Positions 3,758 through 54,908 of a stretch of DNA of 55,292 nucleotides are shown piece by piece. Source of the DNA: Desulfobacteraceae bacterium (lineage in GTDB: Bacteria > Desulfobacterota > Desulfobacteria > Desulfobacterales > ETH-SRB1); the NCBI GenBank assembly GCA_028571455.1, contig JAPVVG010000061.1, positions 1-55,292 of the forward strand, in the 5' to 3' direction. Position 1 is the stretch's first letter, and the number at the start of each line of letters is the position of its first letter. The translations under genes and the position numbers were made by a program. A model generated the notes under the pieces. That model was not told the origin of the DNA, did no database searches, and saw only the letters and a list, made by a program, of their open reading frames with translations.

Positions 3758-3769
3758 AGTTATTCTCCT

Positions 3770-4936
3770 TTAAATTATTTCCAATTCCGCCTGGAGAGCT
3801 CCGGCGGCCTTTATGGCCTGCAAAATAGTGATCAGATCTCTCGGAGTAACGCCAATTGCATTTAGAGCCCTGACTAACTCGCCAATTGTCCTTCCCTCCG
3901 GAACCAGAAGAAGCCGATTTTTTTCCTCAGAGACCGATACATCGCTTTTTGGAGAAACAACTGTGCTTCCCCCCGGCGCAACTATTACGCCTTCCTCCGT
4001 TTCCGTCAGAGCAGACCCCTCACCTGATGGCGCAAAGGGAAGAGGTTGCGAGACCTCTTTTGCCTCTTTTATCTCAATGCTCAGGTTTCCATGGGCAACA
4101 GCAACTTTTGAGATTCTGACATTTTCTCCGATTACTACTGTGCCGGTCCTTTCATTGACTATAACCTTTGCCATGGTATCCGGAACTACCTCGAGTTGGC
4201 CGATTTGAGCAAGCAGGTCAACCGTCCTGTCATGGAATTCGTGAGGGATCCGAAATTTCAAAGTGCCGGAGTCTATTGGTTTGGCAATGTCATCTCCAAA
4301 TCGCGAGTTGATCACGCCGGCAATCCTAAGGGCTGTAATAAAATCAGGATTATTTAAAATAATGGTTAATTCCTGTTTATTTTTGAGCGACAAAGGGATT
4401 TCTCTTTCTACTGTAGCTCCTCCACTGATTCTCCCTACAGTAGGATGGTTTTTTGTAACACCTCCCCCAGCGTCCCCGCCGGCGCTGAAACCACCAATGC
4501 ATATAGCGCCCTGGGCAAGAGCATATACCTTGCCGTCAACCCCTTTCAGGGGAGTTAGAAGAAGATTCCCTCCCTGCAGGCTTTTGGCGTCGCCAATAGA
4601 GGATATTGTTATATCAATCTTTTGCCCTATCCTGGCAAATGGCGGAAGCATAGCGCTAACTACTACCGAGGCAACATTGCTCACCTTCAGATTCGTCGCA
4701 CTAACATGAATCCCCATATGTTCCAGCATATTAGCAAGGCCCTGAATGGTAAAACTTGCTCCAGCTTTATCGCCGCTGCCATTCAAGCCAATGATCAGAC
4801 CATACCCAAAAAGCTGATTTGGCCTGATACCTTTAATTGAGACAATATCCTTTATCCTTGCCGCCTCACCAATGGAAGGTGAAAAGAGAATAAAGGCTAA
4901 AATGACTAATAATAAAAACCTAAAACGGCCATACAT
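3770..4936 (-). CDS. flgI: flagellar P-ring protein FlgI
   Basis: 388 aa with a signal peptide. The C-terminus LVRALNAIGVTPRDLITILQAIKAAGALQAELEII is conserved. Confidence 0.95.
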   Translation of the reverse strand: MYGRFRFLLLVILAFILFSPSIGEAARIKDIVSIKGIRPNQLFGYGLIIGLNGSGDKAGASFTIQGLANMLEHMGIHVSATNLKVSNVASVVVSAMLPPFARIGQKIDITISSIGDAKSLQGGNLLLTPLKGVDGKVYALAQGAICIGGFSAGGDAGGGVTKNHPTVGRISGGATVEREIPLSLKNKQELTIILNNPDFITALRIAGVINSRFGDDIAKPIDSGTLKFRIPHEFHDRTVDLLAQIGQLEVVPDTMAKVIVNERTGTVVIGENVRISKVAVAHGNLSIEIKEAKEVSQPLPFAPSGEGSALTETEEGVIVAPGGSTVVSPKSDVSVSEEKNRLLLVPEGRTIGELVRALNAIGVTPRDLITILQAIKAAGALQAELEII

Positions 4937-5633
4937 GATCGATTATCCTCCCTAACCAGCCAGGTTTTTGCTTGTCTGCCAGAGGACCGATGCCGGCATA
5001 ATTTATCTTGGCATCAGCCACATATGTGGAAGAAATCTCGTTTGACAGGCTTATGTCCTCCGGCCTTATTATGCCTGACAGGGCTATATACTGTGTTTCA
5101 TTATTGACCTTGATCTCTCTTTTTCCATTGATGTAAAAGTTTCCGTTGGGAAGGACCTTTATAATTACAGCGGAAATATATGCCTTTATATGTCCATCCC
5201 TGTCACTGGAAGCCTTTCCATCAAACTTTGAAGCAAGAGTCGCATTTATCAGGTCGTCAGTACCTGGATTTTGGGCAAGCCTGGAATTTTTGCCGGCCAG
5301 GGCCTTCATGTAACCCAAAAACTTGAGCTTTGCGCCCATACTCGAGGACCTGCTCGTGCTGGTATTGGCATTCAGTTTTGCTTCCGGATCCTCCACAATC
5401 CTTACGATAACAATATCTCCTACCTTTCTTGCCCTTTTGTCAGGATAAAGACTAATGCCGCTTGTTTCCGACCATAATGATCCCTCCGCTATTTCAGGGG
5501 GTTTATAATCTGGAAATTGCGGGTCCTGAATCCTTTTTACTGCAGGAACATCAGAGGTGCTTAACGGAAAAGCAGCGCAACCGGTCAGGAAAAAAATCAT
5601 TACTAATAAAAATGCAAACTTTTGGGAGACCAT
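4920..5633 (-). CDS. flgH: flagellar L-ring lipoprotein FlgH
   Basis: 237 aa. It has a lipobox (LTGC) and an FlgH-like core (GDIVIVRIVE..., NGNFYINGKREIKVNNE). Confidence 0.9.
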   Translation of the reverse strand: MVSQKFAFLLVMIFFLTGCAAFPLSTSDVPAVKRIQDPQFPDYKPPEIAEGSLWSETSGISLYPDKRARKVGDIVIVRIVEDPEAKLNANTSTSRSSSMGAKLKFLGYMKALAGKNSRLAQNPGTDDLINATLASKFDGKASSDRDGHIKAYISAVIIKVLPNGNFYINGKREIKVNNETQYIALSGIIRPEDISLSNEISSTYVADAKINYAGIGPLADKQKPGWLGRIIDHVWPF

Positions 5634-6404: not shown

Positions 6405-7187
6405 CTACCTCTTAATGTTATTGGCTATCTGCAACATGCTGTCTGCTGTCTGTATGGCCTTGCTGTTTATCTCATAGGCTCTCTGGGCCGCAATCATGGA
6501 AACCATCTCCTTGACTACATCCACATTAGACATCTCGAGAAACCCCTGGAGTATAGTTCCTACACCGTCTGAACCCGGCGTGCCGGAAATGGCCTCGCCT
6601 GATGCATCCGTGCTTCTATATAAATTATGCCCAATACTAAAAAGACCCGCGGTGTTTGGAAAGGTATATAATTCTATTTCCCCAAGGGATGTCCCCTCAC
6701 CTGAAGAATTAAAGACTGTTACTGTTCCGGCTCCGTCAATCGTAATGTTGACAGTATCTGCTGTAACAGCCATCTCCGGTTGCAACTTGTCTCCATTTGC
6801 CGTGCAGATGTTTCCATCTGCATCTAATTTAAAGTTGCCGGCCCTGGTATACAGTTCCTCGTCATTGCTGAGTACTTTAAAAAAGCCTTTTCCCTCTATA
6901 ACCATGTCCAGCTCATTTTTTGTCTCTTGAAAATCTCCCTGCATAAACACCTTATGCACACCAAGAGGCATTGTCCCCATGCCGATTTGGATGCCTGTAG
7001 GAATCTGACTGCCACCCGATGTTTCTGCGCCGGACTGACTTATGGTCTGATACATCAAGTCTTGAAATTCGGCGCGGCTCTTTTTGAAACTTGTTGTATT
7101 TACATTGGCCAGATTATTGGCAATAACATCGATCGTCATTTGCTGGGCGGCCATTCCTGATGCCGCTGACCACATTCCCCTTAACAT
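6405..7187 (-). CDS. flgG: distal rod protein FlgG
   Basis: 260 aa. N-terminus: AASGMAAQQMTIDVIANNLANVNTTSFKKSR. C-terminus: SNVDVVKEMVSMIAAQRAYEINSKAIQTAD. Confidence 0.92.
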   Translation of the reverse strand: MLRGMWSAASGMAAQQMTIDVIANNLANVNTTSFKKSRAEFQDLMYQTISQSGAETSGGSQIPTGIQIGMGTMPLGVHKVFMQGDFQETKNELDMVIEGKGFFKVLSNDEELYTRAGNFKLDADGNICTANGDKLQPEMAVTADTVNITIDGAGTVTVFNSSGEGTSLGEIELYTFPNTAGLFSIGHNLYRSTDASGEAISGTPGSDGVGTILQGFLEMSNVDVVKEMVSMIAAQRAYEINSKAIQTADSMLQIANNIKR

Positions 7188-7204
7188 GATTATCTCCTCC
7201 TCTA

Positions 7205-7888
7205 TTATTGCATGCCAAGACTATTAACCATTTGACTGGTCATTTCATCCATGCACTGAATTACCTTTTGGGCCGACTCAAAGGCCCTGAATGTCTCTAT
7301 CATCTTAACCATTTCTTCTGTTGGATTAACATTGGATTTCTCTAAATAACTTTGCCGAACATCGACATTTTCGGCTGTAAATATTTCTTCCTCCCTCCCT
7401 TGATACATATAGTATGAAAATCCTTCCTTTCTAAGAAGTTGCGGGCGTTTAAAATCTACCACCAATATCCTGTCAACAGGCTGGTTGTCCACTAAGACCT
7501 GTCCGTCATTTTCTATTGACACCTTGATTCCATTGATACTTATAGCGCCGTTTTGGCCCAATACTTTATCACCCTTCCGGGTTACCAGAAAGCGCTGAGC
7601 ATTTATGGTAAATGAGCCGTTTCTTGTATATCTGATACCCTGGGATGTCTGTATCTTAAAGAGTCCCTGAGTGGCCAGCGCCACATCGAGTTCGTTCCCA
7701 GTATAAACTACAGGACCCGGGCTGAAGTCTGTTTCGGAAACATGTTTCATGGAAAGTGTCTGATTAAATGAGATGATGTCCTTTTTAAAGGCATTTGTAT
7801 TAATATTTGCAAGATTATTAGCGATGTTATCAAACCTGAGCTTTTGAACCATGGCGCCATCTACTATATTATGAATTCCTGATATCAA
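7205..7888 (-). CDS. flgF: proximal rod protein FlgF
   Basis: 227 aa with a TTG start. It has rod-family N-terminal (NIANNLANINTNAFKKD) and C-terminal (SNVNPTEEMVKMIETFRAFE) motifs and lies upstream of flgG. Confidence 0.8.
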   Translation of the reverse strand: MISGIHNIVDGAMVQKLRFDNIANNLANINTNAFKKDIISFNQTLSMKHVSETDFSPGPVVYTGNELDVALATQGLFKIQTSQGIRYTRNGSFTINAQRFLVTRKGDKVLGQNGAISINGIKVSIENDGQVLVDNQPVDRILVVDFKRPQLLRKEGFSYYMYQGREEEIFTAENVDVRQSYLEKSNVNPTEEMVKMIETFRAFESAQKVIQCMDEMTSQMVNSLGMQ

Positions 7889-8783: not shown

Positions 8784-9066
8784 GGATTGATGATTTATGA
8801 TTGTTGATTGATGATTGATGTCCCGCCTGGGCGGGATTCGCCCTGCCCGCCACCTGCCCGCAATGCCCTCGATGCGGGCGGGCTTGCTCAGACGAGGCAG
8901 GCGGGTCTATCTTTTCAATCGCCAATCATCAATCCTTGCTCTGACCTCCGACCCCGATTTTCGCGGCTGAAAGCCGCTCCCACTCAACCACTCGACCACT
9001 CGACCACTCGACCACTGGGCCTCTGACATCTGACATCTGACTTCTGACTTCTGACCTCTGACATCT
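8784..9066. repeat. composite repeat block: TGATTGA heptamers / GC hairpins / inverted CAATCAT / 9-mers CCACTCGAC x3 / CTGACYT heptamers
   Basis: This was read directly from the sequence. The outer ggattgatgatt...caatcatcaatcc arms are inverted repeats around stacked cccgcc/ggcggg hairpins. Confidence 0.9.
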
Positions 9067-20310: not shown

Positions 20311-20485
20311 ATTCCTCACTCCTCACTCCTCACTCCTTACTCCTTACTCCCTATTCTCTATTCCCTATTCCCTATCCTCTTTGCTGGTTCTCCGACCCCA
20401 GACCTCTGACTTCTGACTTCCGACTTCCGACCTCCGACTTCCGACTTCTGACTCCAGACCTCTGACCTCTGACCTCTGACCTCTA
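20311..20485. repeat. heptamer arrays CCTCACT/CCTTACT, CCCTATT, CTGACYT/CCGACTT between fliQ and fliP
   Basis: Three successive heptamer modules are joined by the conserved junction cctctttgctggttctccgac. Confidence 0.95.
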
Positions 20486-20493
20486 CTTATCAA

Positions 20494-25721: not shown

Positions 25722-25895
25722 GGTTCAGGGTTGCTCGTTACTCGTTACTCGTTGCTCGTCATTTGTTATTGATTATTAATTCAGGGTTCAAGGTTCCGAT
25801 TTCCGGTTTTCGACTTCCGATTTCCGACTTCTGACCTCTGACTTCCGACTTCTGACCTCTGCCTGCCCGCCGTCCTTCTGGCGGGACTTCCGGGT
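25722..25895. repeat. heptamer arrays GGTTCAG, CTCGTTR, CYGAYTT plus GC hairpin in the motA leader
   Basis: This was read directly from the sequence. The block ends with cctgcccgccgtccttctggcgggac (25862-25887). Confidence 0.95.
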
Positions 25896-26025: not shown

Positions 26026-26118
26026 GCAGGCGGGTTTTGGTCATTGTAATTTACCTGCCCGCCATCGGCTTCGCCTACAGGCGAGGCGGGCGGGTTTGTT
26101 ATTTGTTATTTGTTATTT
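26026..26118. repeat. GC hairpin element plus TGTTATT heptamers
   Basis: cctgcccgccatcggcttcgcctacaggcgaggcgggcggg is followed by three tgttatt units. Confidence 0.85.
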
Positions 26119-28737: not shown

Positions 28738-29112
28738 CTGAACGAAAACCCCTCTTTTTGTCATTTCGACCGTAGGGAGAAATCTTTAATGCCTGTATTT
28801 TCAGTATGATAAGATTTCTCGCTTTGCTCGAAATGACAGCTTTGGTTAGTTTTCGTTCAGACACTATTTAGTATACGTTCAGAGTTCTAAGTTCTGGGTT
28901 CCCTTTATTTTGTTAACCTTTACTAACCCTGAACCGTTGAACGATTCTGTCCCCGCCAGACTGACGGCGGGCAAGCTCTGACCTCTGACCTCTGACCTCT
29001 GACCTCTGACCTCTGTCCTCTGACTTCTGACTTCCGACCTCAGACCTCTGACTTCTGACCTCAGACCTCTGCCTGCCCGCCGTCCTTCTGGCGGGACCTC
29101 CGACCTCTGTCC
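28738..29112. repeat. palindromic element (arms 28760-28785 / 28812-28837) plus hairpins and CTGACYT array between fliK and flgD
   Basis: gtcatttcgaccgtagggagaaatct pairs with agatttctcgctttgctcgaaatgac. An outer inverted repeat ctgaacgaaaac/gttttcgttcag is also present. Hairpins lie at 28952-28971 and 29072-29097. Confidence 0.92.
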
Positions 29113-29117
29113 TAACC

Positions 29118-30848
29118 CTATACTATTAAATCCAATAAACAATCGCCTCTTGACACAATCCGCTGCATGATTTGTGATTCACTTTCTCCAATGAATGGAA
29201 TCGAATTCATCCCTTTATTCCACCTCTGATTCTGCTTTGTCGACTCCTTTGAGTCAGCCAGGGACTGGCCAAAATTGTAATTGATCTGAACATCTAATTT
29301 GTCGAGCTTTACCCCCTGTTCCACCAGGGCATGTTTGAGCTCATGGACATTGGAAAGCAGGAGTTCCTTTACCGAACTATTCTCAGCTATCATTCCAAGC
29401 TTCAGGATATTGCCTTTAATATTCATCTCGATCTTCACAGTCCCTAAGTCAGGGGGTTTCAATTGAAGTCTTATGACCCTTTCGCCCCTGAGAATAGACC
29501 TGGAAATCTGTTTTCCTACCTGATTAATCAAATAAGCCGGCAATAAATTCCTCGCAGACCCTGGCTGCTGTTTGACGTTATTGATGATATCTGAGGAGGT
29601 GGAACTTCCAATATTGCAGGGGACATCCATTTTACCTGTTTCTGATTTGATTATATGCCCCTCTTCTTTACCCCCCATCTTTAATGTGAGACCGGTATCG
29701 CGAGTCCGGGTTATTGAGCTTATCTCATTCTCGCTCAGATGAGACGGGCGGGCATTGGCGCCATTCTTTTTCAGAAGAGATGGTATATTCTCCTTTTCCG
29801 CTGCTTTATTCTTTCCTGTTTTCTTATTGGAATGTAAAGCGGTTAACTCCGGTCTGGAATCAGAATGTAAAGCGGTTAACTCCGGTCTGGAATCAGAATG
29901 TAAAGCGGTTAACCCCGGTCTGGAATCAGAATGTAAAGCGGTTAACTCCGGTCTGGAAAAGGATAATAGAGAAGATACGAGGCTCTCTTTTTCTGCGCTC
30001 ACAGCCACCTTTTCTACTATCTGGTCAATGGAAGCTTTTACATCAGCCGGCAACAGACCTCCTTTACCCGGGCCTCCTGCCATTTGTTCCAGCGCTGTTA
30101 TCAGGTCTTTGATTGAAACCCGGCCATCCATTTTCTTAGTTGGTATCTGAATTCCTATCCCTTCAAGTTTTTTTAAGACCTTGCAGACCACATCTCGATC
30201 AATAGTCACTTGATTTCTTTCAGGATCTCTTGGATTTATCTGGTTGCTGATCTCTTTTAATTTTATGACAAGTCTTTTCAGATCCAATTTCCCGCCTTCA
30301 AGTTTTGCATAGCTGAAAACATGATCCAGTTCTTTTGGCGACAGACCAAAATCTCTCAATAATGATTCAAGATGGGGAATAACCGAAATATCCAGGGCAA
30401 CAGGTTGATATGACTTTTTCTCAGGAGGTTCAAGCTCGGTTAGTTTATGGAAAAACTCGGACAGATTAATCTCTCCACTAAGTTTATTCTCGGCCAGTCC
30501 CTGTAAGAACTTTTCCACGCTTTCCTGGGAAAAACCACAATGGTAAAGAAATTTTTTTAACACAAAAAGATCCTTTTTGTTTAGAGAGATTTTATTTAAT
30601 GGTTTCCCCCTAACTAAAAGTCCTTTTCTGAGAGATTCAATATAGAATTTATATCCTTTTTTAAGGGCCGGTCCGGTTTGAGCAGGCCTGGTAGGATGAT
30701 GAAAGGGCTTTTTTTGAGCCGAATTCAGTAATTTCTGGATAGAGGCGAAAAAATCCCCTGTCCCTTTTACCGATTTTAAGAGACTCCCGTTATTGCCTCC
30801 CTGGCAATTAATGGGTGATGAAATAATTTTTAAGATTATTGGGTTCAT
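29118..30848 (-). CDS. fliK: hook-length control protein FliK
   Basis: 576 aa. The C-terminal FliK domain reads IRLQLKPPDLGTVKIEMNIKGNILKLGMIAENSSVKELL. The gene lies upstream of flgD-flgE and contains 3.8 copies of a 33-nt in-frame repeat. Confidence 0.85.
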   Translation of the reverse strand: MNPIILKIISSPINCQGGNNGSLLKSVKGTGDFFASIQKLLNSAQKKPFHHPTRPAQTGPALKKGYKFYIESLRKGLLVRGKPLNKISLNKKDLFVLKKFLYHCGFSQESVEKFLQGLAENKLSGEINLSEFFHKLTELEPPEKKSYQPVALDISVIPHLESLLRDFGLSPKELDHVFSYAKLEGGKLDLKRLVIKLKEISNQINPRDPERNQVTIDRDVVCKVLKKLEGIGIQIPTKKMDGRVSIKDLITALEQMAGGPGKGGLLPADVKASIDQIVEKVAVSAEKESLVSSLLSFSRPELTALHSDSRPGLTALHSDSRPELTALHSDSRPELTALHSNKKTGKNKAAEKENIPSLLKKNGANARPSHLSENEISSITRTRDTGLTLKMGGKEEGHIIKSETGKMDVPCNIGSSTSSDIINNVKQQPGSARNLLPAYLINQVGKQISRSILRGERVIRLQLKPPDLGTVKIEMNIKGNILKLGMIAENSSVKELLLSNVHELKHALVEQGVKLDKLDVQINYNFGQSLADSKESTKQNQRWNKGMNSIPFIGESESQIMQRIVSRGDCLLDLIV

Positions 30849-31514: not shown

Positions 31515-32090
31515 TTACTTTTTAAGAAGCCCTTCACTTATTTTAGCGGCTTTCTCTATATCCACAAAAGAAAGGATATCCCCAACAATATCTCCTTTCA
31601 TCCTGGAAAAAAGTTCAATGACAAGCTTTAAGTCCAGTTTTTCAATCAAGCTTGCTGCTTTCTGTGGTTTCATGGCCGAATATATCTTTATAAGATGCTT
31701 AAGTTTCCGGTCCTCACCAGTCTTTTTCACGGCCATTTCAGCTCTTATTTCATTCCTTAACCGGGTAAGCGCTGCGATTTTATTGTTTATCTCCTCCTGG
31801 AGAGCAACAAGTTGTATCTTTCTTTTTTCAAGATATTTTTCTTTTTCTTTGAGCTCAGCCTTCTTCCTGAGGAAACTCGAATTGATCGTTTTTTTCACGC
31901 CCGCCCTGGCTGAAGCCTCGCTACGCCGGGCGGGCTCTGCTGCCACTTCAGGATTTTTTGGGGGTTCTGATGCTATAGCAATTGTTCCCGTGAATAAGGA
32001 AGTAAATCGTATCTCGTAAAGAAAAATAGACCCCAATACAATCTTTACAATGATTAAGGAGGTCAGAAAAATCTGTATCAGCAACTTCAT
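31515..32090 (-). CDS. membrane-anchored coiled-coil flagellar protein with MgtE-N/MotE-like C-terminus (YlxF position)
   Basis: 191 aa. It has a TM helix, a coiled coil, and KHLIKIYSAMKPQKAASLIEKLDLKLVIELFSRMKGDIVGDIL. Its start overlaps the fliJ stop by 4 nt. Confidence 0.6.
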   Translation of the reverse strand: MKLLIQIFLTSLIIVKIVLGSIFLYEIRFTSLFTGTIAIASEPPKNPEVAAEPARRSEASARAGVKKTINSSFLRKKAELKEKEKYLEKRKIQLVALQEEINNKIAALTRLRNEIRAEMAVKKTGEDRKLKHLIKIYSAMKPQKAASLIEKLDLKLVIELFSRMKGDIVGDILSFVDIEKAAKISEGLLKK

Positions 32091-40027: not shown

Positions 40028-40296
40028 GGTTCAAGTCGCTTCGCTCCAGGAAAGAGAAAAGAGGTAAGAGAAAATAGGAAAGGCGCTCTATCCTCTATCC
40101 TCTTTACTCTATCCTCTTTACTCTATCCTCTTTACTCTATCCTCTTTACTCTTTGCTGGTTCTCCGACCTCTGACTTCTGACCTCTGACTTCTGACTTCT
40201 GACCTCTGACCTCTGACTTCTGACTTCTGACCTCCGACCTCTGACTTCTGACCTCTGACATCTGACTTCTGACCTCCGACCTCTGACTTCTGAGCC
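40028..40296. repeat. composite block: ggttcaagtcgcttcgctcc element, 14-mer CTATCCTCTTTACT x4, CTGACYT array (runs into TPR gene 3' end)
   Basis: This was read directly from the sequence. The junction ctttgctggttctccgac is conserved with 20381 and 42921 (reverse complement). Confidence 0.95.
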
Positions 40297-42797
40297 CTGA
40301 TTTCCCTATTAAAATTAATCTCTTCTATCCTCTCTTTAGCAAGATTACTCCAGAATGGATCGTCGAAGCTCGAGATCTGATCATAAAGCGCAAGGGAATC
40401 TTTCCTTTTATTTAACAGCCAATAGCATTGAGCAACCTTGAACTTGAGCGGAATTATATTTGCCTTATCTTTTGCCATCTCGATAGCCTGGTTAAAGATG
40501 GCAGCGGCCTCTTTGGGATAGCTGAGATTGAGATAGACGTCTCCTATCTCCTGATAAATGTAATCATGGACTGAGTCACAAGCTTCCTTTAAGCTATCTG
40601 CCTCCCTTACTGCCTCTAATGCCTTTTCATTAAAGCTGCACCTCGCCAACGCACCGGCCTTGTCCGTCAAGAGTATTGTTCTTTTGCATGGAGTTAAGGG
40701 ATATTTCAGGGCAGAAGAAAACATCTCCGCTGCCTGAACATATCTCTTTTGTGTCAAAAAAATACTACCCTTCAACCGGTATGCATATTGAGCGTATTTG
40801 TCAGACGGATAATTGTTTATCAAGAGGTTAAGTCTTGTCAGGGCGCTTTTGAGCTCTTCTTTTTCAGACAAACTCCTGCTCAAGAAAAAGAGAAGCTCAG
40901 GGGGTTTCTCTTTGTCAGGCAAAAGAGGATCAGCGATACTAAACATCTCTGTGGCCATGTTCTCAAGATTTAGATGTATGCATGCTTTTGCAATCATTAA
41001 AAAGGGTTCAGGAGAATCAATTTTTGAAAACAGTTCTTTTTCACGATCATAGATATTTATTATGTTAGCATATTTTTTTCTTTCCATATCCTTCTTAAGG
41101 ATCAATTCCATCGTGTTTTGCAAAATATATTTATACTCTTTTTTTAATGACGTCCGGGGATAACGCTTAAAGAACTTCTTTAAGGTCTCGAGGCTTTTGT
41201 TATAATCCTTTTGTTTCTGATATAAAACAGCAAGTTTGAACATGGCAAGCTGTGCCAGGGAATCTTTTTTATCTTTGCCAGAAGGATTGTTTATAATATT
41301 TTTATAAATTTCTTCGGGCTTGTCTATGTCTTTGCCTATTTTTACAGGAGACAATTCAATTATGTTTTCAACTATGCTTTCTGTCTTTAAGTTCCATTCT
41401 TCTTGTTGTTCTGCAAGCCTGATTATACTGATACGGGCGCCCTCTGTGTCTGGATAGCGTTCGCAGACCATCTGATAGATTTTTACAGCATCCTTGATCA
41501 GCCCATCATCTTGATAAGTATCTCCGATCCTGGTTAATATTAAATGGCTCATTTCTCTGTCAGGGCAGCTATTATAAAATCGAAACAGGTTTTCTCTGAC
41601 ACTGGCGTTATCTCCCAACTGGTAATAGATATCGCCAAGGCTTAGAGAAATCTCCGGGTACTGATAGATACTTTGAGGATTTGTTGTTCTAAGTTCAGAA
41701 AGAACATCAAGGGATTCATGGAAGGCATTCATTTCATAGAGGATCTTTGACATTTCTATCTTTGCTTCTGTTCTTTGGCGTATATCCGCATCTCTGGAAA
41801 CTACCTCTTTTAAAACAGACAGCGCCTTCCGCCTCCTTTTTTTCAGGTAAAAAATCTTAGCCTTCTGTATCATGGCGCTCATGGCACACAAAGCGCTTTT
41901 ATCTTTCCTCAAAATAAGGTTGTAATAGCCCATCGCCTCAGTGTAGCATTTGGTCTTGAAATACAGATTCCCAATGGCAAGCATGGCTCCCGGCACATAT
42001 ATGGATCTGGGGAATCTATTAACAGCATCCTTATAATGATTTCTAATATCGTTGAAATGAGTCGGAATAGAATCTGAATATAATTGCTCGTAAGATTTTG
42101 CCAGGAGAAAACAGGCCCTCTCTGTGTATCTGCCTGAGGGGTATATTTTGATGAAATGATTGAGCTTTTCAATTGTCCCGGACAGGTTTTGCTCCCTGTA
42201 TGCATTAAGGCCTTCCAAAAAAAGGGCTGTATCATCCTGACCGTCATCTACTTCCATTTGAGTAAGTTTTTTTTCAGGATCTTCCAGTTCTTTTTTTTCA
42301 TTGTTTATCTCGCTGTCCAGCAATGACAAATCAGAATTAAGCGCTTCCTCTTCATTCAACCCGTCAATCATTATAACTTCTTTATTTGTAATGATAACTT
42401 CTTTATTTGTAATGGCTTCTACTATTTTTTTCTGAGAGTCAAGCTTTGCAGGTATCTTGTCTGCATCTTTTTTTTCAGCCTCATTGCTGTTTTTTTCTAT
42501 CACGACTTTTTTATTTCTATCAAAGGCTACATACTTTGGCCTGTTTCTGACATACCCTGTAACTTGTTTAGTGGATATCTTGAGCCATCCTCCTATACCC
42601 CCTCTCTGGTCAAGGATAGTGACTTTTGTTCCTTTTTGAAGAATATCCACAACAGAAGAATCCCGGGAAGGCTCTTTTCTTACATTAAGATGCCAGCAAC
42701 TTACTTCTCCCTGCAACACAGCCCCATTATTGTCTACAGCCCCGGCTGAAAAAGCAGTAAACAGAAAAACAACGCTGGCAAACAGAATATATTTCAT
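40146..42797 (-). CDS. large secreted SH3b + multi-TPR protein
   Basis: 883 aa. It has a signal peptide (FSAGAVD), an SH3b-like segment (WHLNVRKEPSRDSSVVDILQKGTKVTILD..GWLKI) and many TPR-like repeats. It carries a perfect 21-nt in-frame duplication (42373-42414). The C-terminal ~50 aa are translated from heptamer repeats. Confidence 0.85.
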   Translation of the reverse strand: MKYILFASVVFLFTAFSAGAVDNNGAVLQGEVSCWHLNVRKEPSRDSSVVDILQKGTKVTILDQRGGIGGWLKISTKQVTGYVRNRPKYVAFDRNKKVVIEKNSNEAEKKDADKIPAKLDSQKKIVEAITNKEVIITNKEVIMIDGLNEEEALNSDLSLLDSEINNEKKELEDPEKKLTQMEVDDGQDDTALFLEGLNAYREQNLSGTIEKLNHFIKIYPSGRYTERACFLLAKSYEQLYSDSIPTHFNDIRNHYKDAVNRFPRSIYVPGAMLAIGNLYFKTKCYTEAMGYYNLILRKDKSALCAMSAMIQKAKIFYLKKRRRKALSVLKEVVSRDADIRQRTEAKIEMSKILYEMNAFHESLDVLSELRTTNPQSIYQYPEISLSLGDIYYQLGDNASVRENLFRFYNSCPDREMSHLILTRIGDTYQDDGLIKDAVKIYQMVCERYPDTEGARISIIRLAEQQEEWNLKTESIVENIIELSPVKIGKDIDKPEEIYKNIINNPSGKDKKDSLAQLAMFKLAVLYQKQKDYNKSLETLKKFFKRYPRTSLKKEYKYILQNTMELILKKDMERKKYANIINIYDREKELFSKIDSPEPFLMIAKACIHLNLENMATEMFSIADPLLPDKEKPPELLFFLSRSLSEKEELKSALTRLNLLINNYPSDKYAQYAYRLKGSIFLTQKRYVQAAEMFSSALKYPLTPCKRTILLTDKAGALARCSFNEKALEAVREADSLKEACDSVHDYIYQEIGDVYLNLSYPKEAAAIFNQAIEMAKDKANIIPLKFKVAQCYWLLNKRKDSLALYDQISSFDDPFWSNLAKERIEEINFNREIRAQKSEVGGQKSDVRGQKSEVGGQKSEVRGQRSEVRSQRSEVRGRRTSKE

Positions 42798-45076: not shown

Positions 45077-45454
45077 TCAACTGCCAAATACCTTCTCTAA
45101 TTTTCCACTTATGGTTTCTGCGGTAAAGGGTTTCACAACGTAATTGCTCACCCCTGCCTGGACTGCCTCTATAATATTATCTTTCCGCGCCTCGGCCGTA
45201 ATCATTACAAATGGTATGTCCTTTATTTCATTATCAGACCTGACCTTATTTAACAGCTCTAAACCAGACATTTCCGGCATATTCCAGTCACATAATATCA
45301 GATCAAATTTCTGTTTTTTCAGCATAGTTAGAGCGCTTTTACCATGATCAGCCTCATAAATATTTGTAAAGCCGATTTGCCTGAGGATATTCTTTAAAAT
45401 ACGCCTCATGGTGGCAAAATCATCAACAATAAGAACATCCATATTTAAATCCAT
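45077..45454 (-). CDS. cheY: chemotaxis response regulator CheY
   Basis: 125 aa, single REC domain: LIVDDFATMRRI, DLILCDWNMPEMSG, VVKPFT. Confidence 0.92.
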   Translation of the reverse strand: MDLNMDVLIVDDFATMRRILKNILRQIGFTNIYEADHGKSALTMLKKQKFDLILCDWNMPEMSGLELLNKVRSDNEIKDIPFVMITAEARKDNIIEAVQAGVSNYVVKPFTAETISGKLEKVFGS

Positions 45455-45466
45455 AAAATATCATCC

Positions 45467-45745
45467 TCTTGCTCGTTGCTCGTTGCTCGTTGCTCGTTGC
45501 TGGTTGCTGGTTACTCGTTGCTGGTTACTGGTTCTCTGACCCCCGCCCGCCATCGCTTCGCTCAGGCGAGGCGGGCAGGTCTGACTTCTGTTCCTTTTGT
45601 TTTTCATTCGATGTTGGACGTTCGATGTTCGATGTTGGACGTTCATCTTTTGCTTGTTTCTCGTTTCTCGTTGCTGGTTTTCTGACCTCCGACCTCCGAC
45701 CTCTGCCTGCCCGCCGTCCTTCTGGCGGGACTTCTGACCTCTGGC
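45467..45745. repeat. composite block incl. CTCGTTG/CTGGTTR heptamers, 112-nt element copy 1 (45536-45647), hairpin 45706-45731
   Basis: This was read directly from the sequence. Confidence 0.95.
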
Positions 45746-45749
45746 ATCT

Positions 45750-46538
45750 TCAAAGATTGTCCAAAAGATCGTCTATGCCTGCCTGATCAAGACCATGGCC
45801 TTGTTTTTGCGGACCTGACAACTCTTCAACCTTTTCATCCACCACCTTCTGCAACTCATCCTGGGAAATATGAGGGTTTTTCTCCCTCTCATTGAGTTTA
45901 AGACCAAATGATATAACCATCCCCTTAATTTTTTTCTCTATTTCGCTTACAAGATTTATAATACTTTTAATCCTCTGGCCTGTCAAGTCCTGGAAACTCA
46001 TCTGAATGAACGAATCAGATATCAAAGACAGATAATTTTCGTTACTCGACTCCACGTAGTCAATAAGGGGAGAGATACTTTTTACCGCTTTTTTATCTAT
46101 TTTAATTTGATGATTATCTTTTCCCTGACCTGGGACCGCTATTGTCCCTTGTCTCAGAGAGGCAAATATTTTCCTGGTTTCTCCAATATTTTGTTCCATG
46201 TTTTCCAGATTATCCATGATCTTATTGGCGGCCATTTCAGTTGTCTCAATGACCCCCTCTAACTGATCAGCAGCCTGGGGGATATACTTTGTCGCTATAT
46301 CGGTTATATTGGGATGAATCTTTGATTTTAGTTCCCTTCTAAAATCAATGAGCAACAGGGCCAGGTCCTTGACACCTCCTGTCATTTCAGAGGTAAGGTT
46401 TCTGAAAAAACTGTCATCATCCTGGTCCATGCCATTGGCCATTGCCTGCTTGAAAAAAACCGTCAATTGCTCTGTCTCATTGCCTGTAAGCTTGCCGGCT
46501 ACGATATCGCTGATTTCCTTTTTAAAATTTTCTTTCAT
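45750..46538 (-). CDS. cheZ: CheY-P phosphatase CheZ
   Basis: 262 aa. FQDLTGQRIKSI matches the CheZ catalytic D/Q motif (QDLTGQ). The C-terminal GIDDLLDNL resembles the CheY-binding peptide. Confidence 0.8.
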   Translation of the reverse strand: MKENFKKEISDIVAGKLTGNETEQLTVFFKQAMANGMDQDDDSFFRNLTSEMTGGVKDLALLLIDFRRELKSKIHPNITDIATKYIPQAADQLEGVIETTEMAANKIMDNLENMEQNIGETRKIFASLRQGTIAVPGQGKDNHQIKIDKKAVKSISPLIDYVESSNENYLSLISDSFIQMSFQDLTGQRIKSIINLVSEIEKKIKGMVISFGLKLNEREKNPHISQDELQKVVDEKVEELSGPQKQGHGLDQAGIDDLLDNL

Positions 46539-46562: not shown

Positions 46563-46754
46563 AGGTTCAGGGTTCAGGGTTCAGGGTTCAGGGTTACTCG
46601 TTACTGGTTGCTGGTTACTGGTTACTGGTTCTCTGACTTCTGACCTCTGACTTCTGACTTCTGACTTCTGACCTCTGACCTCTGACCTCTAATTCCTCAA
46701 TTCCTTAATTCCTCAATTCCTTAATTCCTCAATCCTCTATCCTCTTTGCTCTAT
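46563..46754. repeat. modular block GGTTCAG x4 / CTSGTTR x6 / CTGACYT x9 / AATTCCTY octamers x5 / CCTCTAT
   Basis: This was read directly from the sequence. The block lies between cheB and cheZ. Confidence 0.95.
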
Positions 46755-49517: not shown

Positions 49518-49993
49518 ATTTTCTTCATCCCTGCGCCTGATATCTTTAACCATGCCTGGCCGGTTTTTATCTCAAGCTTCAATGTCCTGTTAACCGTGCC
49601 GCCCACATCTTCAAAATCAATCATCACATTGTTTTTCCAGAACATCTTCCTGAGGACAGTATGGTTTCTCTTGCCGATATTAAACAGGCCTTTCTGGTCG
49701 AGAATTTGAGAGCCACCCGCTACAATAATTTGAAGACGATTCTTTTTTGCCCCAAATTTATAGGTTTCTTTAAAAAGAACGGGTATCCCGATGTCACCGA
49801 ACATATAGGGATTCTTTCTGGCTTTTTGCACATCCAGGCTGGACTCAGGCAGCATATAGTGAAGCAATCCGCCAACCTTTGCCACAGGGTCATATATGGC
49901 CAGAGCTATGCATGAGCCTAAAGAATAGGTAACAAGAACGGATTCAGGGTCATTACTCACCTTCATGTCTCCAACCCCAACGACAAGATTCAT
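49514..49993 (-). CDS. cheD: chemoreceptor glutamine deamidase CheD
   Basis: 159 aa with VGVGDMKVSNDPESVLVTYSLGSCIALAIYD. An ATGA overlap links it to the cheA stop. Confidence 0.9.
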   Translation of the reverse strand: MNLVVGVGDMKVSNDPESVLVTYSLGSCIALAIYDPVAKVGGLLHYMLPESSLDVQKARKNPYMFGDIGIPVLFKETYKFGAKKNRLQIIVAGGSQILDQKGLFNIGKRNHTVLRKMFWKNNVMIDFEDVGGTVNRTLKLEIKTGQAWLKISGAGMKKI

Positions 49994-52233
49994 TCTGATT
50001 CTCCTGAAGATATGTCGAAAATTCCTGCAATATCAAGAATAAGGCTGATTTTACCATCCCCCATAATTGCCCCGCCGGCCACCCCTTTTATATTTTTAAG
50101 CGCTCCGCCAAGATTTTTAATAACTATCTCTTCCTTGCTAATTAATTCATCTACGAGCAGGCATCTTCTTCCCCCCTGGTTTTCCACAACTACCACCAAT
50201 CTTTGCCAGGGATGGCTGTCTATTTTATTTGACAAGGAATTTCCCTTGAGTCCAAACATCTGATCAAGCCTGACTAAAGGAAGTAAATGATCCCTGAACA
50301 TGATCATCTCCCCCTCTCCCTTTACTGTGTGGCATTCGGTCCTCTTAGGTCTAAAAGACTCCTGGATAGTCAGGGTGGGAATAACATATCTCTCGTCACA
50401 GACTTTTACAATCATTCCATCGATTATTGCCAGGGTGAGAGGCACCCGGGTATAAACCGTTGTGCCTTTACCAGGCATTGACTGCACATCAACTCTCCCC
50501 TTTAGTTTTTCAACAATCCTGTTTTTTACTACATCCATGCCTACGCCCCTGCCGGATATATCGGTTACCTTTTCCGCAGTAGAAAGGCCTGGATGAAATA
50601 TAAGGTTGTCGATCTCTACATCGGTCAATTTTTCATCTTCCTTTATCAGACCGCTGGATATGGCCTTTTTCAGGATTTGTTCCCTGTTTAAACCCTGGCC
50701 GTCATCCTCGATTTCTATTACAATATTGCCTCCCTTGTGATATGCTTTTAAATATATGGTTCCCTGTCGGGGTTTATTTGCGGCCTCCCTTTCATCCGGC
50801 AGTTCCAGGCCATGGTCTATTGAATTTCTGATCATATGGACTATGGGCTCATATATTTCTTCCACCATATTCCTGTCTATCTCTGTATCTTCACCTGACA
50901 TGACAAGCTGCGCTTCCTTGCCCGCCTTTTTTGCCAGGTCTCTTATAAGCCGCAGCATCTTTTGAAAGGTGCTCTTGATCGGCACCATCCTGAGCGACAT
51001 GACCGTTTTCTGCAATCCGGAAGTAAGCAGGTTCAACCGATTAACTATCTGATCCAGATCCCTGTCCCTGCTTGCCATGATTAACTTATTTTGTCTGAAC
51101 ATTGACTGGGCAATTGCCAGTTCTCCAACCATGTCCACTATATTATCGAGTTTGCCTGTATCCACCTTTACATGAAGAGCAACCAGCCGGCCAAATCCTT
51201 TCTGTTCCCTGAGCGCGGATACAACCTCCTTTGTTTCAACCTTTTTCTGTTCAACAAGTATCTCTCCAATTTTCTTGCCGTCCTGTTTCTTTTGGATATC
51301 AAGGACATCTTTAACATCCTGGTCAGAAACCACCCCCTTTTCAATCAGCATCTCGCCCAGGGGCTTATCACCATCCCCTTGGGCCTTTGCAAGAAAATGT
51401 TCAATCCTGACAATAATTTGTTTAGTGTCTATATCCCCTTCTAATGGAGTTCCAGTATCAAGAGAGGCCTGGACATTTTCAATCATGCTCTTCAACATAT
51501 CCACGCTTTCGAGTATAATATCTACTATTTCCCCATCTATAGAAAGCTCTTTGTTTCTGACCTTATCTAAAAGATTTTCCGATATATGGGCAAGTTTATT
51601 GATCTTATTGAAATTGAGAAAGCCGGACACCCCTTTAACCGTATGAAAAGGTCTAAATATGGCATTTATCGTTTCAAGGTCGGAAGGATCCTGTTCAAGA
51701 TCCATTAATTTAATTTCAATGGTACCTAAGTTGTCCAGAGACTCGGTCACAAAATCAATGATAATCTCTTTGTCCTCATCACCTATTATACCGGGCGTTC
51801 CTTCCAAACCCTGAACCTCTGAACCCCGCCCGCCATCGCTTCGCTCAGGCGAGGCGGGCAAGCCTTGAACCTTATAACCAAGACTCTTGAGAAGGGGGGA
51901 AATATCCTTATCAGACTCCTTCCCGTCAGCCAGATCTCTACACAGTTTCTGCAGTTCGGAGACGCCTGCCTCAAAAGGGGATAAATCAGATGTCTCATTC
52001 AAAATGACCTTTTCCAAATATCCTTTCATCCCTGATATTACAGGTATCAAAAATTTTTGATCGAGTTTCCCGGCCAAATCCTTTATGGATTCGAGAGATT
52101 TTAGAGTCTTGCCAAGACCAGGTATATCTTCCGGGTCCAGCATGACAGTATCCAGGGCAAGAGAATCAATGAGTCTGGTAATCTTTTTTAATGATTTTTT
52201 CATGATAAATAAGGTTCCGGGTTCAAAGTTCAC
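49990..52233 (-). CDS. cheA: chemotaxis histidine kinase CheA (with N-terminal extension and in-frame repeat insertion)
   Basis: 747 aa. It has an Hpt domain (FRPFHTVKGVSGFL), a dimerisation domain, an HATPase domain (DDGQGL, GRGVGMD) and a CheW-like P5 domain. The start is either the GTG at 52233 or the ATG at 52203. Confidence 0.93.
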   Translation of the reverse strand: MNFEPGTLFIMKKSLKKITRLIDSLALDTVMLDPEDIPGLGKTLKSLESIKDLAGKLDQKFLIPVISGMKGYLEKVILNETSDLSPFEAGVSELQKLCRDLADGKESDKDISPLLKSLGYKVQGLPASPERSDGGRGSEVQGLEGTPGIIGDEDKEIIIDFVTESLDNLGTIEIKLMDLEQDPSDLETINAIFRPFHTVKGVSGFLNFNKINKLAHISENLLDKVRNKELSIDGEIVDIILESVDMLKSMIENVQASLDTGTPLEGDIDTKQIIVRIEHFLAKAQGDGDKPLGEMLIEKGVVSDQDVKDVLDIQKKQDGKKIGEILVEQKKVETKEVVSALREQKGFGRLVALHVKVDTGKLDNIVDMVGELAIAQSMFRQNKLIMASRDRDLDQIVNRLNLLTSGLQKTVMSLRMVPIKSTFQKMLRLIRDLAKKAGKEAQLVMSGEDTEIDRNMVEEIYEPIVHMIRNSIDHGLELPDEREAANKPRQGTIYLKAYHKGGNIVIEIEDDGQGLNREQILKKAISSGLIKEDEKLTDVEIDNLIFHPGLSTAEKVTDISGRGVGMDVVKNRIVEKLKGRVDVQSMPGKGTTVYTRVPLTLAIIDGMIVKVCDERYVIPTLTIQESFRPKRTECHTVKGEGEMIMFRDHLLPLVRLDQMFGLKGNSLSNKIDSHPWQRLVVVVENQGGRRCLLVDELISKEEIVIKNLGGALKNIKGVAGGAIMGDGKISLILDIAGIFDISSGESE

Positions 52234-52371: not shown

Positions 52372-52757
52372 GAACCTTGATGGAATCGCTTCGTTCTATC
52401 TTTTTCCATAGACAATCATAAATCCTTGCTCCGCCCACTGCTTACTGCTTACGGCTTACTGCCCTGCGACATCTGACTTCTGAGCTCTGCCCTCTGACCC
52501 CCGCCCGCCATCGCTTCGCTCAGGCGAGGCGGGCAGGTCTGACTTCTGTTCCTTTTGTTTTTCATTCGACGTTGGACGTTCGATGTTCGATGTTGGACGT
52601 TCATCCCTTTTCCTTCTGATTTCTGGTTTCTGACCTCTGACATCTGACTTCTGATTTCTGATCTCTGACCTCTGACTTCTGATTTCTGATCTCTGACCTC
52701 TGACTTCTGACCTCTGACCTCTGACCTCCGACTTCTAATCCCTCAATTCCTAAATTC
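52372..52757. repeat. composite block incl. CTGCTTA heptamers, 112-nt element copy 2 (52494-52605), long CTGAYYT array, octamers
   Basis: This was read directly from the sequence. The block lies between cheR and cheA. Confidence 0.95.
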
Positions 52758-53604: not shown

Positions 53605-54006
53605 GTTCAGGGTTCAAGTCGCTTCGCTCCAGAAAAGAGGATAGAGAATAGAGAAAATAGGAAAGGTCCTCTATCCTCAAGTCGCTTCGCTCTATCCTCT
53701 ATTCTGGTTACTCGTTGCTGGTTGCTGGTTACTGGTTGCTGGTTGCTCGTTGGCTTTGTTTGTGGGAGTGGCTTTCACAAATCATCCAATCCACGAATCC
53801 ACTAATCATCCTACTCGTTCCAGCATCCAATCATCCAATCAACGAATCAATCAATTCCCCACTCGACTACTCGACTACTCGACTACTCGACTACTGGGCC
53901 TCTGACTTCTGATCTCTGACCTCTGACCTCTGACCTCCCTGGCTCGGCGTAGCTTTGCGTAGACGGCTGACCTCTGATTTCTGATTTCTGATTTCTGATC
54001 TCTGCC
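53605..54006. repeat. composite block: ggttcaagtcgcttcgctcc element x2, CTGGTTR heptamers, CAATC-type repeats, 9-mer CTCGACTAC x4, CTGAYYT arrays (runs into pilZ gene 3' end)
   Basis: This was read directly from the sequence. Confidence 0.95.
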
Positions 54007-54550
54007 TTTTAAATACACGGGAGATAATTTTTTCCCTTTCATTTATATCAAGATCGAGGAATTTTATGCCAAGCAGGTAAACGTTCTTGCCGTCCTCATT
54101 TACAGGCTCTGTACGGACAACTTCACCAAACACATCAATAAATATGAAAGGAAACGTTGATAGAACAAGGTTTATCTGAATAATCCGTCCATGTTCAACA
54201 GGACTATCCACCGTCATTTTCATCCCGGCGCCTCCGATATCTACTCCAACCCCCTGATTAAAAAGCACAATATCCGGCTCATCTTTGGATAACACGGTGA
54301 GTATGCGGTCCAGTTTCTCATCCATATGAAACAGAAAATCCACAAGACATTGATTTCCTGTAATATCATTAGACCTGTTATCGGTATCAACGCCGTCAAA
54401 TATTAGTCCTTTGTTATCTGAAAACAGAATTTGGTCGCGGGTTTCCTTAATTTCTTCGTATTCCTTCTGGGTGATAACCCTGAATTTAACTTTAAAGGAC
54501 AAATTTGCCCTCACAAAAGAACGCTTCTCCTTTGGCTCTATGTCAACCAC
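53891..54550 (-). CDS. PilZ-domain protein (putative c-di-GMP receptor)
   Basis: 219 aa with a GTG start and AGGAGG 5 nt upstream. KRSFVRANLSF is RxxxR-like, and VGVDIGGAGMKM is D-x-S/G-x-x-G-like. The last ~38 aa are translated from repeats. Confidence 0.7.
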   Translation of the reverse strand: MVDIEPKEKRSFVRANLSFKVKFRVITQKEYEEIKETRDQILFSDNKGLIFDGVDTDNRSNDITGNQCLVDFLFHMDEKLDRILTVLSKDEPDIVLFNQGVGVDIGGAGMKMTVDSPVEHGRIIQINLVLSTFPFIFIDVFGEVVRTEPVNEDGKNVYLLGIKFLDLDINEREKIISRVFKRQRSEIRNQKSEVSRLRKATPSQGGQRSEVRDQKSEAQ

Positions 54551-54619: not shown

Positions 54620-54908
54620 GGGTTCAGGGTTGCTCGTTGCTGGTTACTGGTTACTGGTTGCTGGTTCTCTGACTTCTGTCTGCCCGCCGTCCTTCTGGCG
54701 GGACCTCCGACTTCCGACTTCCGGCCTCTGTCTGCCCGCCGTCCTTCTGGCGGGACTTCCGACTTCCGACTTCCGGCCTCCGACCTCTGCCTGCCCGCCG
54801 TCCTTCTGGCGGGACCTCTGACCTCTAATCCCTCAATTCCCCGTTCTCCATTCCCTATTCCCTATTCCCTATCCTCTTTCCTCTATCCTCTTTCCTGATC
54901 CCTGATCA
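54620..54908. repeat. modular block GGTTCAG / CTSGTTR / three copies of the 26-nt GC hairpin with CCGACTT spacers / octamers / CCCTATT / CCTCTTTCCTCTAT
   Basis: Hairpin copies lie at 54679-54704, 54731-54756 and 54790-54815. Confidence 0.95.

Follow-up and report, generated by a model that had tools for sequence, protein, structure and literature searches.

How does a repeat of intergenic type come to lie in frame inside the gene of a chemotaxis histidine kinase? The question is raised by a 55,292-nt stretch of DNA from Desulfobacteraceae bacterium (GenBank assembly GCA_028571455.1, contig JAPVVG010000061.1, positions 1 to 55,292), which derives from a cold-seep metagenome and is referred to here, at its full length, as the window. 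Its cheA gene, on the minus strand like all long open reading frames (ORFs) of the window, contains a GC-rich hairpin between an N-terminal extension and the Hpt domain. We consider it likely that this segment is a copy of a selfish or neutral hairpin cassette resembling repetitive extragenic palindromic (REP) elements or Rickettsia palindromic elements (RPEs), tolerated where the frame is kept. The features at this site are as follows.

49990..52203, minus strand: cheA, 737 amino acids (aa) counted from ATG; the open frame reaches a GTG at 52233 (747 aa)
51874..52203, minus strand: conserved N-terminal extension of CheA, ~110 aa, a predicted helical bundle (conservation in 14 orthologues and AlphaFold2)
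51863..51871, minus strand: heptamer-like tract 5' of the cassette, sense GGTTCAAGG, read as VQG
51824..51862, minus strand: 39-nt hairpin cassette of type A in loop-flipped form, inside cheA, sense CTT GCCCGCC TCGCCTGAGCGAAGCGAT GGCGGGC GGGG
51828..51859, no strand assigned: 32-nt hairpin core, same sequence as both intergenic copies
51807..51823, minus strand: heptamer-like tract 3' of the cassette, sense TTCAGAGGTTCAGGGTT, read as SEVQGL
51466..51765, minus strand: Hpt (P1) domain of CheA, PF01627, residues 157–256 of the 747-aa ORF

The 32-nt core GCCCGCCATCGCTTCGCTCAGGCGAGGCGGGC was found in three exact copies in the window (45545–45576, 51828–51859 and 52503–52534; none expected from 100 shuffles), one within cheA (51828–51859) and two intergenic. 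On the sense (minus) strand of cheA, positions 51871 to 51807 read GGTTCAAGG-CTTGCCCGCCTCGCCTGAGCGAAGCGATGGCGGGCGGGG-TTCAGAGGTTCAGGGTT and give VQGLPASPERSDGGRGSEVQGL in the cheA ORF. The cassette itself, whose ends were set by comparing the alleles L004, L007 and L010 (GGTTCAAGG^TTCAGAGG or another cassette there), comprises 13 codons for LPASPERSDGGRG, a peptide rich in Pro, Ala, Ser, Gly and Arg that forms residues 115–127 of the 737-aa protein. It contains no stop in the cheA frame (five of the six frames of the type-A unit are open, and one has a stop), and the local translation runs VQG-LPASPERSDGGRG-SEVQGL, with VQGLPASPER and GSEVQGLEGTPGIIGDEDK as the predicted tryptic peptides that cross the cassette. 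The sequence, the three exact copies and the Pfam position thus agree with the initial annotation, which had proposed an intergenic-type hairpin in frame within cheA before Hpt; the intergenic copies it had cited are real, and their positions needed correction by 1–2 nt. No Rfam 15 family matched the window at gathering score, and under a permissive E-value chance-level matches alone appeared, around 45300–45900. An intrinsic (Rho-independent) terminator was rejected, as neither strand has a U-run directly after the GC-rich stem: GGGGUUCAGAGG follows it in the sense direction, and AAGCCUUGAACC or AGGUCUGACUUC in the other.

The host protein was identified as a CheA histidine kinase from four Pfam domains in the order Hpt, H-kinase_dim, HATPase_c and CheW, together with its che operon setting; at the orthologous loci, the cheA neighbours cheR, cheD, cheY, cheX, cheB and cheZ are present. 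The cassette lies upstream of Hpt. In an AlphaFold2 model built with 55 orthologues, the extension forms four to five helices (residues 2–20, 27–46, 52–67, 75–92 and 102–107; predicted local distance difference test (pLDDT) 70–88) and the Hpt helices start at residue 142, and residues 113–138, which hold the insert, have a pLDDT of 26–37 and no secondary structure. The insert is therefore predicted to sit in a disordered linker, not in a fold. The extension is real, at ~110 aa from the ATG at 52203 and not the ~125 aa previously estimated, and by sequence comparison this domain is typical of CheA in this Desulfobacterales clade. That ATG (MKKSL...), used by all orthologues, is almost certainly the start. 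A true start downstream of the element, the case that would have put the hairpin outside the coding region, does not fit the 18 invariant columns of the extension (14 orthologues), its predicted fold and the open frame up to Hpt. Nothing suggests an altered CheA function. We also observed that the extension has LKSLESIKDLAG where Hpt has FRPFHTVKGVSG; despite the predicted helical bundle, a profile–profile comparison of the extension as a degenerate Hpt was not significant (probability 0.3%).

A high-copy repeat could in principle have been joined to cheA by misassembly, and the k-mer depth over the hairpin is indeed ~9 times that of its flanks, with short-read unitigs breaking there; a depth of this order is expected of a multi-copy repeat. 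A contig from a second sample spans 51637–52128 with no differences, and one from another study spans 51500–52232 with 21 differences. The L001 and L002 assemblies carry the same cassette at the same place, with the frame kept, and metatranscriptome contigs lie on both sides of the hairpin (51595–51803 and 51887–52040). Given spanning contigs from independent samples, the shared cassette and the preserved frame, we regard an assembly or chimera artefact as extremely improbable.

We then asked whether the element had joined a once separate upstream ORF to cheA and so produced the long CheA, as had been raised in the initial annotation; the sole support for this is that the repeat is placed exactly between two domains. 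The 120 best CheA homologues are nearly all 732–763 aa long and cover 98–99% of the query, which argues that the extension–Hpt fusion is ancestral. Extension and Hpt share one ORF in every full-length orthologue (~745 aa), down to 62% identity, including L009, which has no repeats at all. Across the 120 orthologues, the inter-domain linker ranges from 47 to 77 residues with variable composition, and the acidic linker of the more distant relatives, in which it is unalignable, represents the ancestral connector. These observations refute the fusion. The heptamer-encoded VQG/SEVQG motif is confined to the clade at ~70% identity or above and is absent in L009, and among the 120 orthologues hairpin-encoded peptides were found in the closest relatives alone (P0001–P0007 and P0018). 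By this comparison, the hairpin in cheA is lineage-specific, and the reading frame and the N-terminal domain are ancestral.

The linker DNA was compared between the window and ten orthologous loci (L001–L010) at the site GGTTCAAGG^...^TTCAGAGG, which holds the following.

Window, L001 and L002: 39-nt type-A cassette
L004: 24-nt type-B cassette, CTT GCCTGCC GTCAGTCC GGCGGG
L003, L005 and L008: two type-B cassettes
L006: two type-C cassettes, loop TCC
L007: GGTTCAG-type repeats alone, with the N-terminal part out of frame
L010 (79% identity): heptamers and an acidic linker
L009 (72% identity, 4.16-Mb genome): no repeats, same two-domain ORF

Over the 340 nt upstream of the site, the window, L001, L003 and L004 show only 3–4 differences, and their 70 nt downstream are identical; they nevertheless carry one A, one A, two B and one B cassettes, respectively. 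The left flank occurs as two haplotypes, AAG...CTT and AGG...CTC, each of which is found with A and with B cassettes, so that exchange must have occurred more than once unless recombination took place within ~15 nt. The type-B cassette of L005 and L008 is the same as the intergenic hairpin at 28952 in the window. As judged from these alleles, no other part of the gene changes as fast as the cassette content of this site. The gene is also a mosaic: between the window and L001 or L002, there are 6 differences in the first 450 nt, 3 in the last 150 nt and 12–28 per 150 nt between, and relative to L001 the 5' 450 nt are ~99% identical and the rest ~90%, a pattern that indicates recent recombination between strains. 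The neighbouring cheR–cheA spacer is equally unstable in length, from 17 nt (L003) and 154 nt (L002) to 524 nt in the window, the last including the hairpin at 52503. The cheA allele of L007, a contig of GCA_001263465.1 (locus positions 1–700), lacks the second half of the N-terminal domain, and what is left of that domain is out of frame with an expanded (SEVQG)n tract; this allele may reflect a deletion between repeats or an assembly collapse.

These alleles also bear on whether the hairpin serves as a functional cis-element, with an mRNA stem-loop that would pause ribosomes, protect the upstream or downstream mRNA, or govern how much long CheA is made relative to a short form initiated at an in-frame TTG (the Leu of QGLEG). 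The 66-nt sense context folds at −27.7 kcal/mol, at least one GCCCGCC-stem hairpin occupies the exact site in 8 of 10 alleles at ≥79% identity, and the TTG lies 3' of the cassette, 8 nt after GAGG (GAGG-N8-TTG); it may be an additional internal start besides the ATG at 52203. REP elements elsewhere are known to stabilise mRNA (reviewed in PMC3733652). The z-score of the fold against shuffles is, however, only −1.7; loop sequence, stem number and length vary among near-identical alleles; L010 and L009 have no hairpin; and the TTG with its context is part of the repeat tract and is absent in more distant orthologues. As the family is, moreover, mostly intergenic and found in unrelated genes in five frame and orientation combinations (see below), we consider a cis-acting function improbable. 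The same variation bears on the earlier suggestion that such elements are tolerated or domesticated as coding linkers: tolerance is well supported, and domestication finds no support in cassettes that vary among near-identical alleles, are absent from distant orthologues and belong to a family read in five frame and orientation combinations in unrelated proteins.

A second in-frame hairpin was confirmed in the gene initially described as ylxF-like.

31899..31935, minus strand: in-frame hairpin GCCCGCCC-N21-GGGCGGGC in the linker after the transmembrane helix of the MotE/YlxF-like ORF (31515–32090), encoding EPARRSEASARAG

In that ORF, 31899–31935 is translated as AAEPARRSEASARAG. The protein gives a weak MgtE_N match, and its homologues are named MotE by JGI. 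Close relatives differ exactly at the hairpin linker. L128 and L130 (89 and 55% identity, respectively) have an extra canonical type-A hairpin of 39 nt inside the loop, at an identical position (locus ~1640–1700) between CCCGGC and GT[A/C]GCGAGG, with the sequence ACCT G[T/C]CCGCC ATCGC...CAGGC[C/G]A AGCAGGC GG, sharp ends and no target-site duplication, and L129 (70% identity) has the length of the window with the left arm of the hairpin decayed. In more distant orthologues, the linker contains between one and three PARH... hairpin peptides. Such nesting means that the type-A hairpin was either lost precisely in the window lineage or inserted repeatedly in a site-specific manner, and by the same comparison the MotE-like linker is a hairpin hotspot too. 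Aligning the orthologues of both proteins, the check proposed at the outset, thus identified both segments as lineage-specific insertions.

The other hairpins of the window lie in its spacers.

45545..45576, no strand assigned: intergenic type-A hairpin, exact core copy, in heptamer arrays between cheZ and a cheY-like gene
52503..52534, no strand assigned: intergenic type-A hairpin, exact core copy, in the cheR–cheA spacer
26057..26091, plus strand: canonical-form type-A variant CCT GCCCGCC ATCGGCTTCGCCTACAGGCGA GGCGGGC GGG, intergenic (fold z = −4.8)
28952..28971, minus strand: intergenic type-B hairpin CTTG CCCGCC GTCAGTCT GGCGGG, matching the L005/L008 cheA cassette
54683..54813, minus strand: three type-D hairpins CCCGCC AGAAGGAC GGCGGG in heptamer arrays, with more copies at 25866, 29076 and 45710

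The pattern GCCCGCC-N10–30-GGCGGGC matched the window six times against an expectation of zero, and one of the four type-A copies is genic. The hairpin at 45545 belongs to a 114-nt block (45534–45647) that is duplicated at 52492–52605 (99%). The initial annotation had placed GGTTCAG heptamers with the hairpin in these blocks; the hairpin is there, and the heptamers beside both intergenic core copies belong to the GGTCAGA type, TCTGACY when read along the plus strand, the GGTTCAG arrays being located elsewhere (38567 and 46564), on the opposite strand.

The distribution of the family was examined with the pattern GCCCGCCATCG-N6–18-GGCGAGGCGGGC in one genome per species (GTDB), where it was found at at least 117 places. 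Among the matches listed, most belonged to metagenome-assembled genomes (MAGs) of Desulfobacterales, Desulfatiglandales and Syntrophobacteria, and others to Doudnabacteria (several contigs), Saccharibacteria, Aminicenantes and Planctomycetes–Verrucomicrobia–Chlamydiae (PVC) MAGs. Matches in Streptomyces, Azospirillum and a Phycisphaerae contig were dropped as chance occurrences in high-GC coding DNA. The type-A unit measures 38–39 nt, with a 7–10 bp stem (GCCCGCC/GGCGGGC) and a structured loop of 18–19 nt, and the family consensus is [G/A]CCT GCCCGCC ATCGC-variable-CTCAGGCGA GGCGGGC GGG, flanked by [G/A]CCT...GGG[C/T/G]; since the search pattern fixed most paired positions, the alignment cannot serve as a test of structure. 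The CCT...GGG flank was present in 103 of 120 copies, and its T·G (U·G) pair forms on one strand only. In the three identical window copies, this polarity is reversed (CCC...AGG on the ATCGC... strand) and the loop is inverted relative to its flank, as in only one other copy, and the six loci with the exact 32-mer in a metagenome scan were all of canonical form. The window copies thus share a rare derived state, which indicates that they are related by descent within the lineage; an inversion of the loop through the inverted stem arms is a plausible origin of this form.

Copies capping a longer, copy-specific palindrome (at least 10 of 14 flank positions paired) made up ~8% of the family, compared with ~1% in permuted controls, so that a position at such an apex is enriched but is not the usual one. 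Proximity to clean heptamer or octamer arrays outside the window was likewise a minority feature (4.4 vs. 0.7% at random positions). The hairpin was also observed on twelve predicted viral contigs (L137–L148, IMG/VR; ~5 loci), beside GATTGTT/GATTGAT heptamers; such contigs could be a vehicle for cross-phylum spread or could represent host DNA in provirus calls.

About 5 of ~118 genuine copies were found inside long, Pfam-confirmed ORFs, with ~95% of copies outside long ORFs. MurC and MurG of a Doudnabacteria MAG, PriA and a Maf/MptE-like TPR protein each carry an in-frame copy in a Pfam-confirmed ORF; in the TPR protein, the heptamers are translated too. The peptides seen (PARHRF..., LPAIALAQA..., RPPSLSLRRGGR, PPASPE...RWRA/SDGGR and RPPRLSESDGGQ) correspond to five of the six frame and orientation combinations, and thus no particular peptide is selected; the filter is compatibility of frame and stop codons together with a tolerant location. 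An exact 32-nt hairpin with CCT/GGG flanks (38 nt) interrupts and frameshifts an IS110-family transposase gene in two metagenomes (L132 5647–6093, and L133). Between these two contigs, the flanking coding DNA differs at positions resembling codon thirds and the hairpin is identical. In the Candidatus Doudnabacteria MAG (L089), the MurC (3762–5243) and MurG (6484–7662) genes carry, in frame, the hairpin together with longer flanking repeat sequence, and the match to the MurG C-terminal domain is split into two stretches by the hairpin.

How such a segment could have arrived and persisted may be summarised as follows. The hairpin repeat would be a small, non-autonomous, GC-clamped element residing in the heptamer arrays of intergenic spacers. 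A short heptamer tract would first have colonised the disordered, length-variable linker between the CheA N-terminal domain and Hpt, and hairpin cassettes would then have entered this tract. The 39-nt copy keeps the frame and brings no stop into a linker that would tolerate almost any sequence, and could thus persist as a neutral or nearly neutral passenger, while frame-breaking copies would be purged from essential genes; the frame-breaking 38-nt copy survives in the dispensable IS110 transposase gene. Turnover between one A, one B, two B, two C and no cassettes would most plausibly proceed by gene conversion or template switching between copies, because the shared stems and flanking heptamers provide homology. 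Loop swapping, loop inversion and identity with intergenic copies fit conversion. We infer the neutrality of the insert, its translation and its mode of movement from these patterns.

Several points weigh against this account. The 5' 450 nt of cheA have recently been exchanged, so that part of the apparent turnover may be a shuffling of strain alleles. As no empty site occurs in a near-identical background, insertion and replacement are inseparable, and the ends are known within 1 nt. All close alleles except L007 and L010 hold a GC hairpin at the site, and the hairpin could thus be favoured. The stems, at 7–10 bp, are short for homologous recombination, translation of the insert is a prediction, and no mobilising enzyme was found among the ORFs within 2.5 kb of 112 loci.

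This last result bears on another route of movement, in which a dedicated enzyme that recognises hairpins in single-stranded DNA (e.g., an IS200/IS605-type Y1 or a transposase like the REP-associated tyrosine transposase (RAYT)) moves the cassette without target duplication and with precise excision. The discrete 39-nt gains and losses with sharp ends and no target-site duplication would fit such an enzyme, as would the strand-asymmetric flank mismatch (CCT...GGG in the 103 of 120 copies), the near-identical sequences across phyla and on predicted viral contigs, and the excess of copies at the apex of other palindromes (~8 vs. ~1% in controls). Clustering of the ORFs near the 112 loci nevertheless recovered no recurrent transposase-like family, generic TPR and ABC-transporter families alone recurring, which is weak evidence given that the loci are genome fragments only; the family also has no GTAG or CGTC tag. 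We view an enzyme of this kind as possible though rather unlikely, and it concerns the mechanism only, leaving the nature of the cassette as a tolerated passenger unchanged. More speculatively, these hairpins may represent an undescribed, horizontally spreading class of 38–39-nt GC-clamped cassettes in Desulfobacterota, the candidate phyla radiation (CPR) and some viral contigs, which would home to heptamer tracts or hairpin apices, nest, and exchange or invert loops via a common stem. If this tentative proposal is true, protein linkers such as those of CheA and MotE, and even the essential enzymes MurC, MurG and PriA, would become fast-evolving, length-variable sites, and the mobility mechanism would be distinct from that of RAYT-driven REPs.

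Among known systems, RPEs are dispersed palindromes of ~100–150 bp, restricted to Rickettsia, that occur between genes and in frame in functional proteins (Ogata et al. 2000, as summarised in PMC3733652). The cheA segment shares with them an in-frame repeat that adds a peptide to the protein at a tolerant surface or linker position: the frame is kept with all four CheA domains intact, and the insert lies in a linker. It differs in its 38–39-nt unit, its apparently unrelated sequence and its hosts (free-living sediment Desulfobacterota and CPR MAGs), in being embedded in heptamer tracts and in the rapid cassette replacement at one site. Membership of RPE-1 to RPE-8 was rejected on the basis of unit length and host lineage (Desulfobacterota/CPR) alone. 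REP elements are imperfect palindromes of 20–40 bp, mostly extragenic, with a minority in genes, including replication genes (Di Nocera et al. 2013; PMC3733652). The hairpin family likewise consists of many copies of a short imperfect palindrome that lie chiefly outside genes and are plausibly transcribed, and PriA contains one of them; in contrast to REPs, it has no unpaired GTAG/CGTC tag on either strand, no RAYT gene was seen within 2.5 kb of its copies at the 112 loci, its loop is long and internally structured, and it is nearly unchanged across distant phyla. Because the tag fails and no RAYT was seen, we did not file it in the GTAG/CGTC REP superfamilies, although it behaves like REPs. 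A miniature inverted-repeat transposable element was also rejected, given the unit size (38–39 nt vs. 70–300 bp) and the lack of target-site duplication at two resolved junctions. Intragenic REPs and RPEs are already established, and what is added here is strain-level cassette turnover at a fixed site and a cross-phylum hairpin family; a search of the literature for the hairpin sequence gave no relevant result. On this evidence, intergenic repeat cassettes can use the disordered linker between two domains of a core signalling kinase as a landing pad. Regarding annotation, Pro/Ala/Arg/Gly-rich peptides in proteins of sediment MAGs (such as PASPERSDGGRG, PARH... and ACPPS...) should be taken for translated hairpin repeats and not for functional motifs. 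In mobile-DNA research, this untagged cross-phylum hairpin family, for which no transposase is visible, could serve for work on REP-like spread.

The heptamers have precedents of their own. In Geobacter metallireducens, tandem heptamers (MTYCTGA) and GC-rich heptamer elements within and between genes were read as regulator-binding sites or RNA elements (PMC2700814); MTYCTGA equals TCTGACY in another register, and a hairpin-cassette polymorphism in a protein linker is not described there. In Beggiatoaceae and Cyanobacteria, intergenic heptamer direct repeats (TAACTGA; similar to short tandemly repeated repetitive (STRR) sequences) have a fixed orientation to genes and a patchy cross-phylum distribution (PMC4679880). 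The arrays of the window share the orientation, the translatability in one orientation only and the patchy distribution, and differ in the heptamers themselves; GC hairpin cassettes and in-frame coding copies are not covered there.

Nearly every intergenic spacer of the flagellar and chemotaxis cluster in the window is filled with several heptamer or octamer arrays in one orientation (e.g., 20391–20488, 28976–29071, 40162–40304, 46631–46690 and 52613–52736). GGTCAGA-type heptamers have no stop in any sense frame and contain TGA on the other strand. The arrays reach into the 3' ends of ORFs as translated tails (40146–40300, minus strand, and 53891–54010): an 883-aa SH3/TPR-like protein ends in ...REIRAQKSEVGGQKSDVRGQKSEVGGQKSEVRGQRSEVRSQRSEVRGRRTSKE, and a PilZ protein ends in ...QRSEIRNQKSEV...GGQRSEVRDQKSEAQ. 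At 8845–8883, an intergenic heptamer/octamer block contains a compound GC-rich palindrome with nested arms (GCCCGCCACCTGCCCGCAATGCCCTCGATGCGGGCGGGC), possibly two hairpin cassettes nested in each other. A 33-nt unit repeated 3.9 times with 97% identity (29830–29958) lies in a 576-aa ORF (29118–30848), where it encodes an 11-aa protein repeat and is unrelated to the heptamers.

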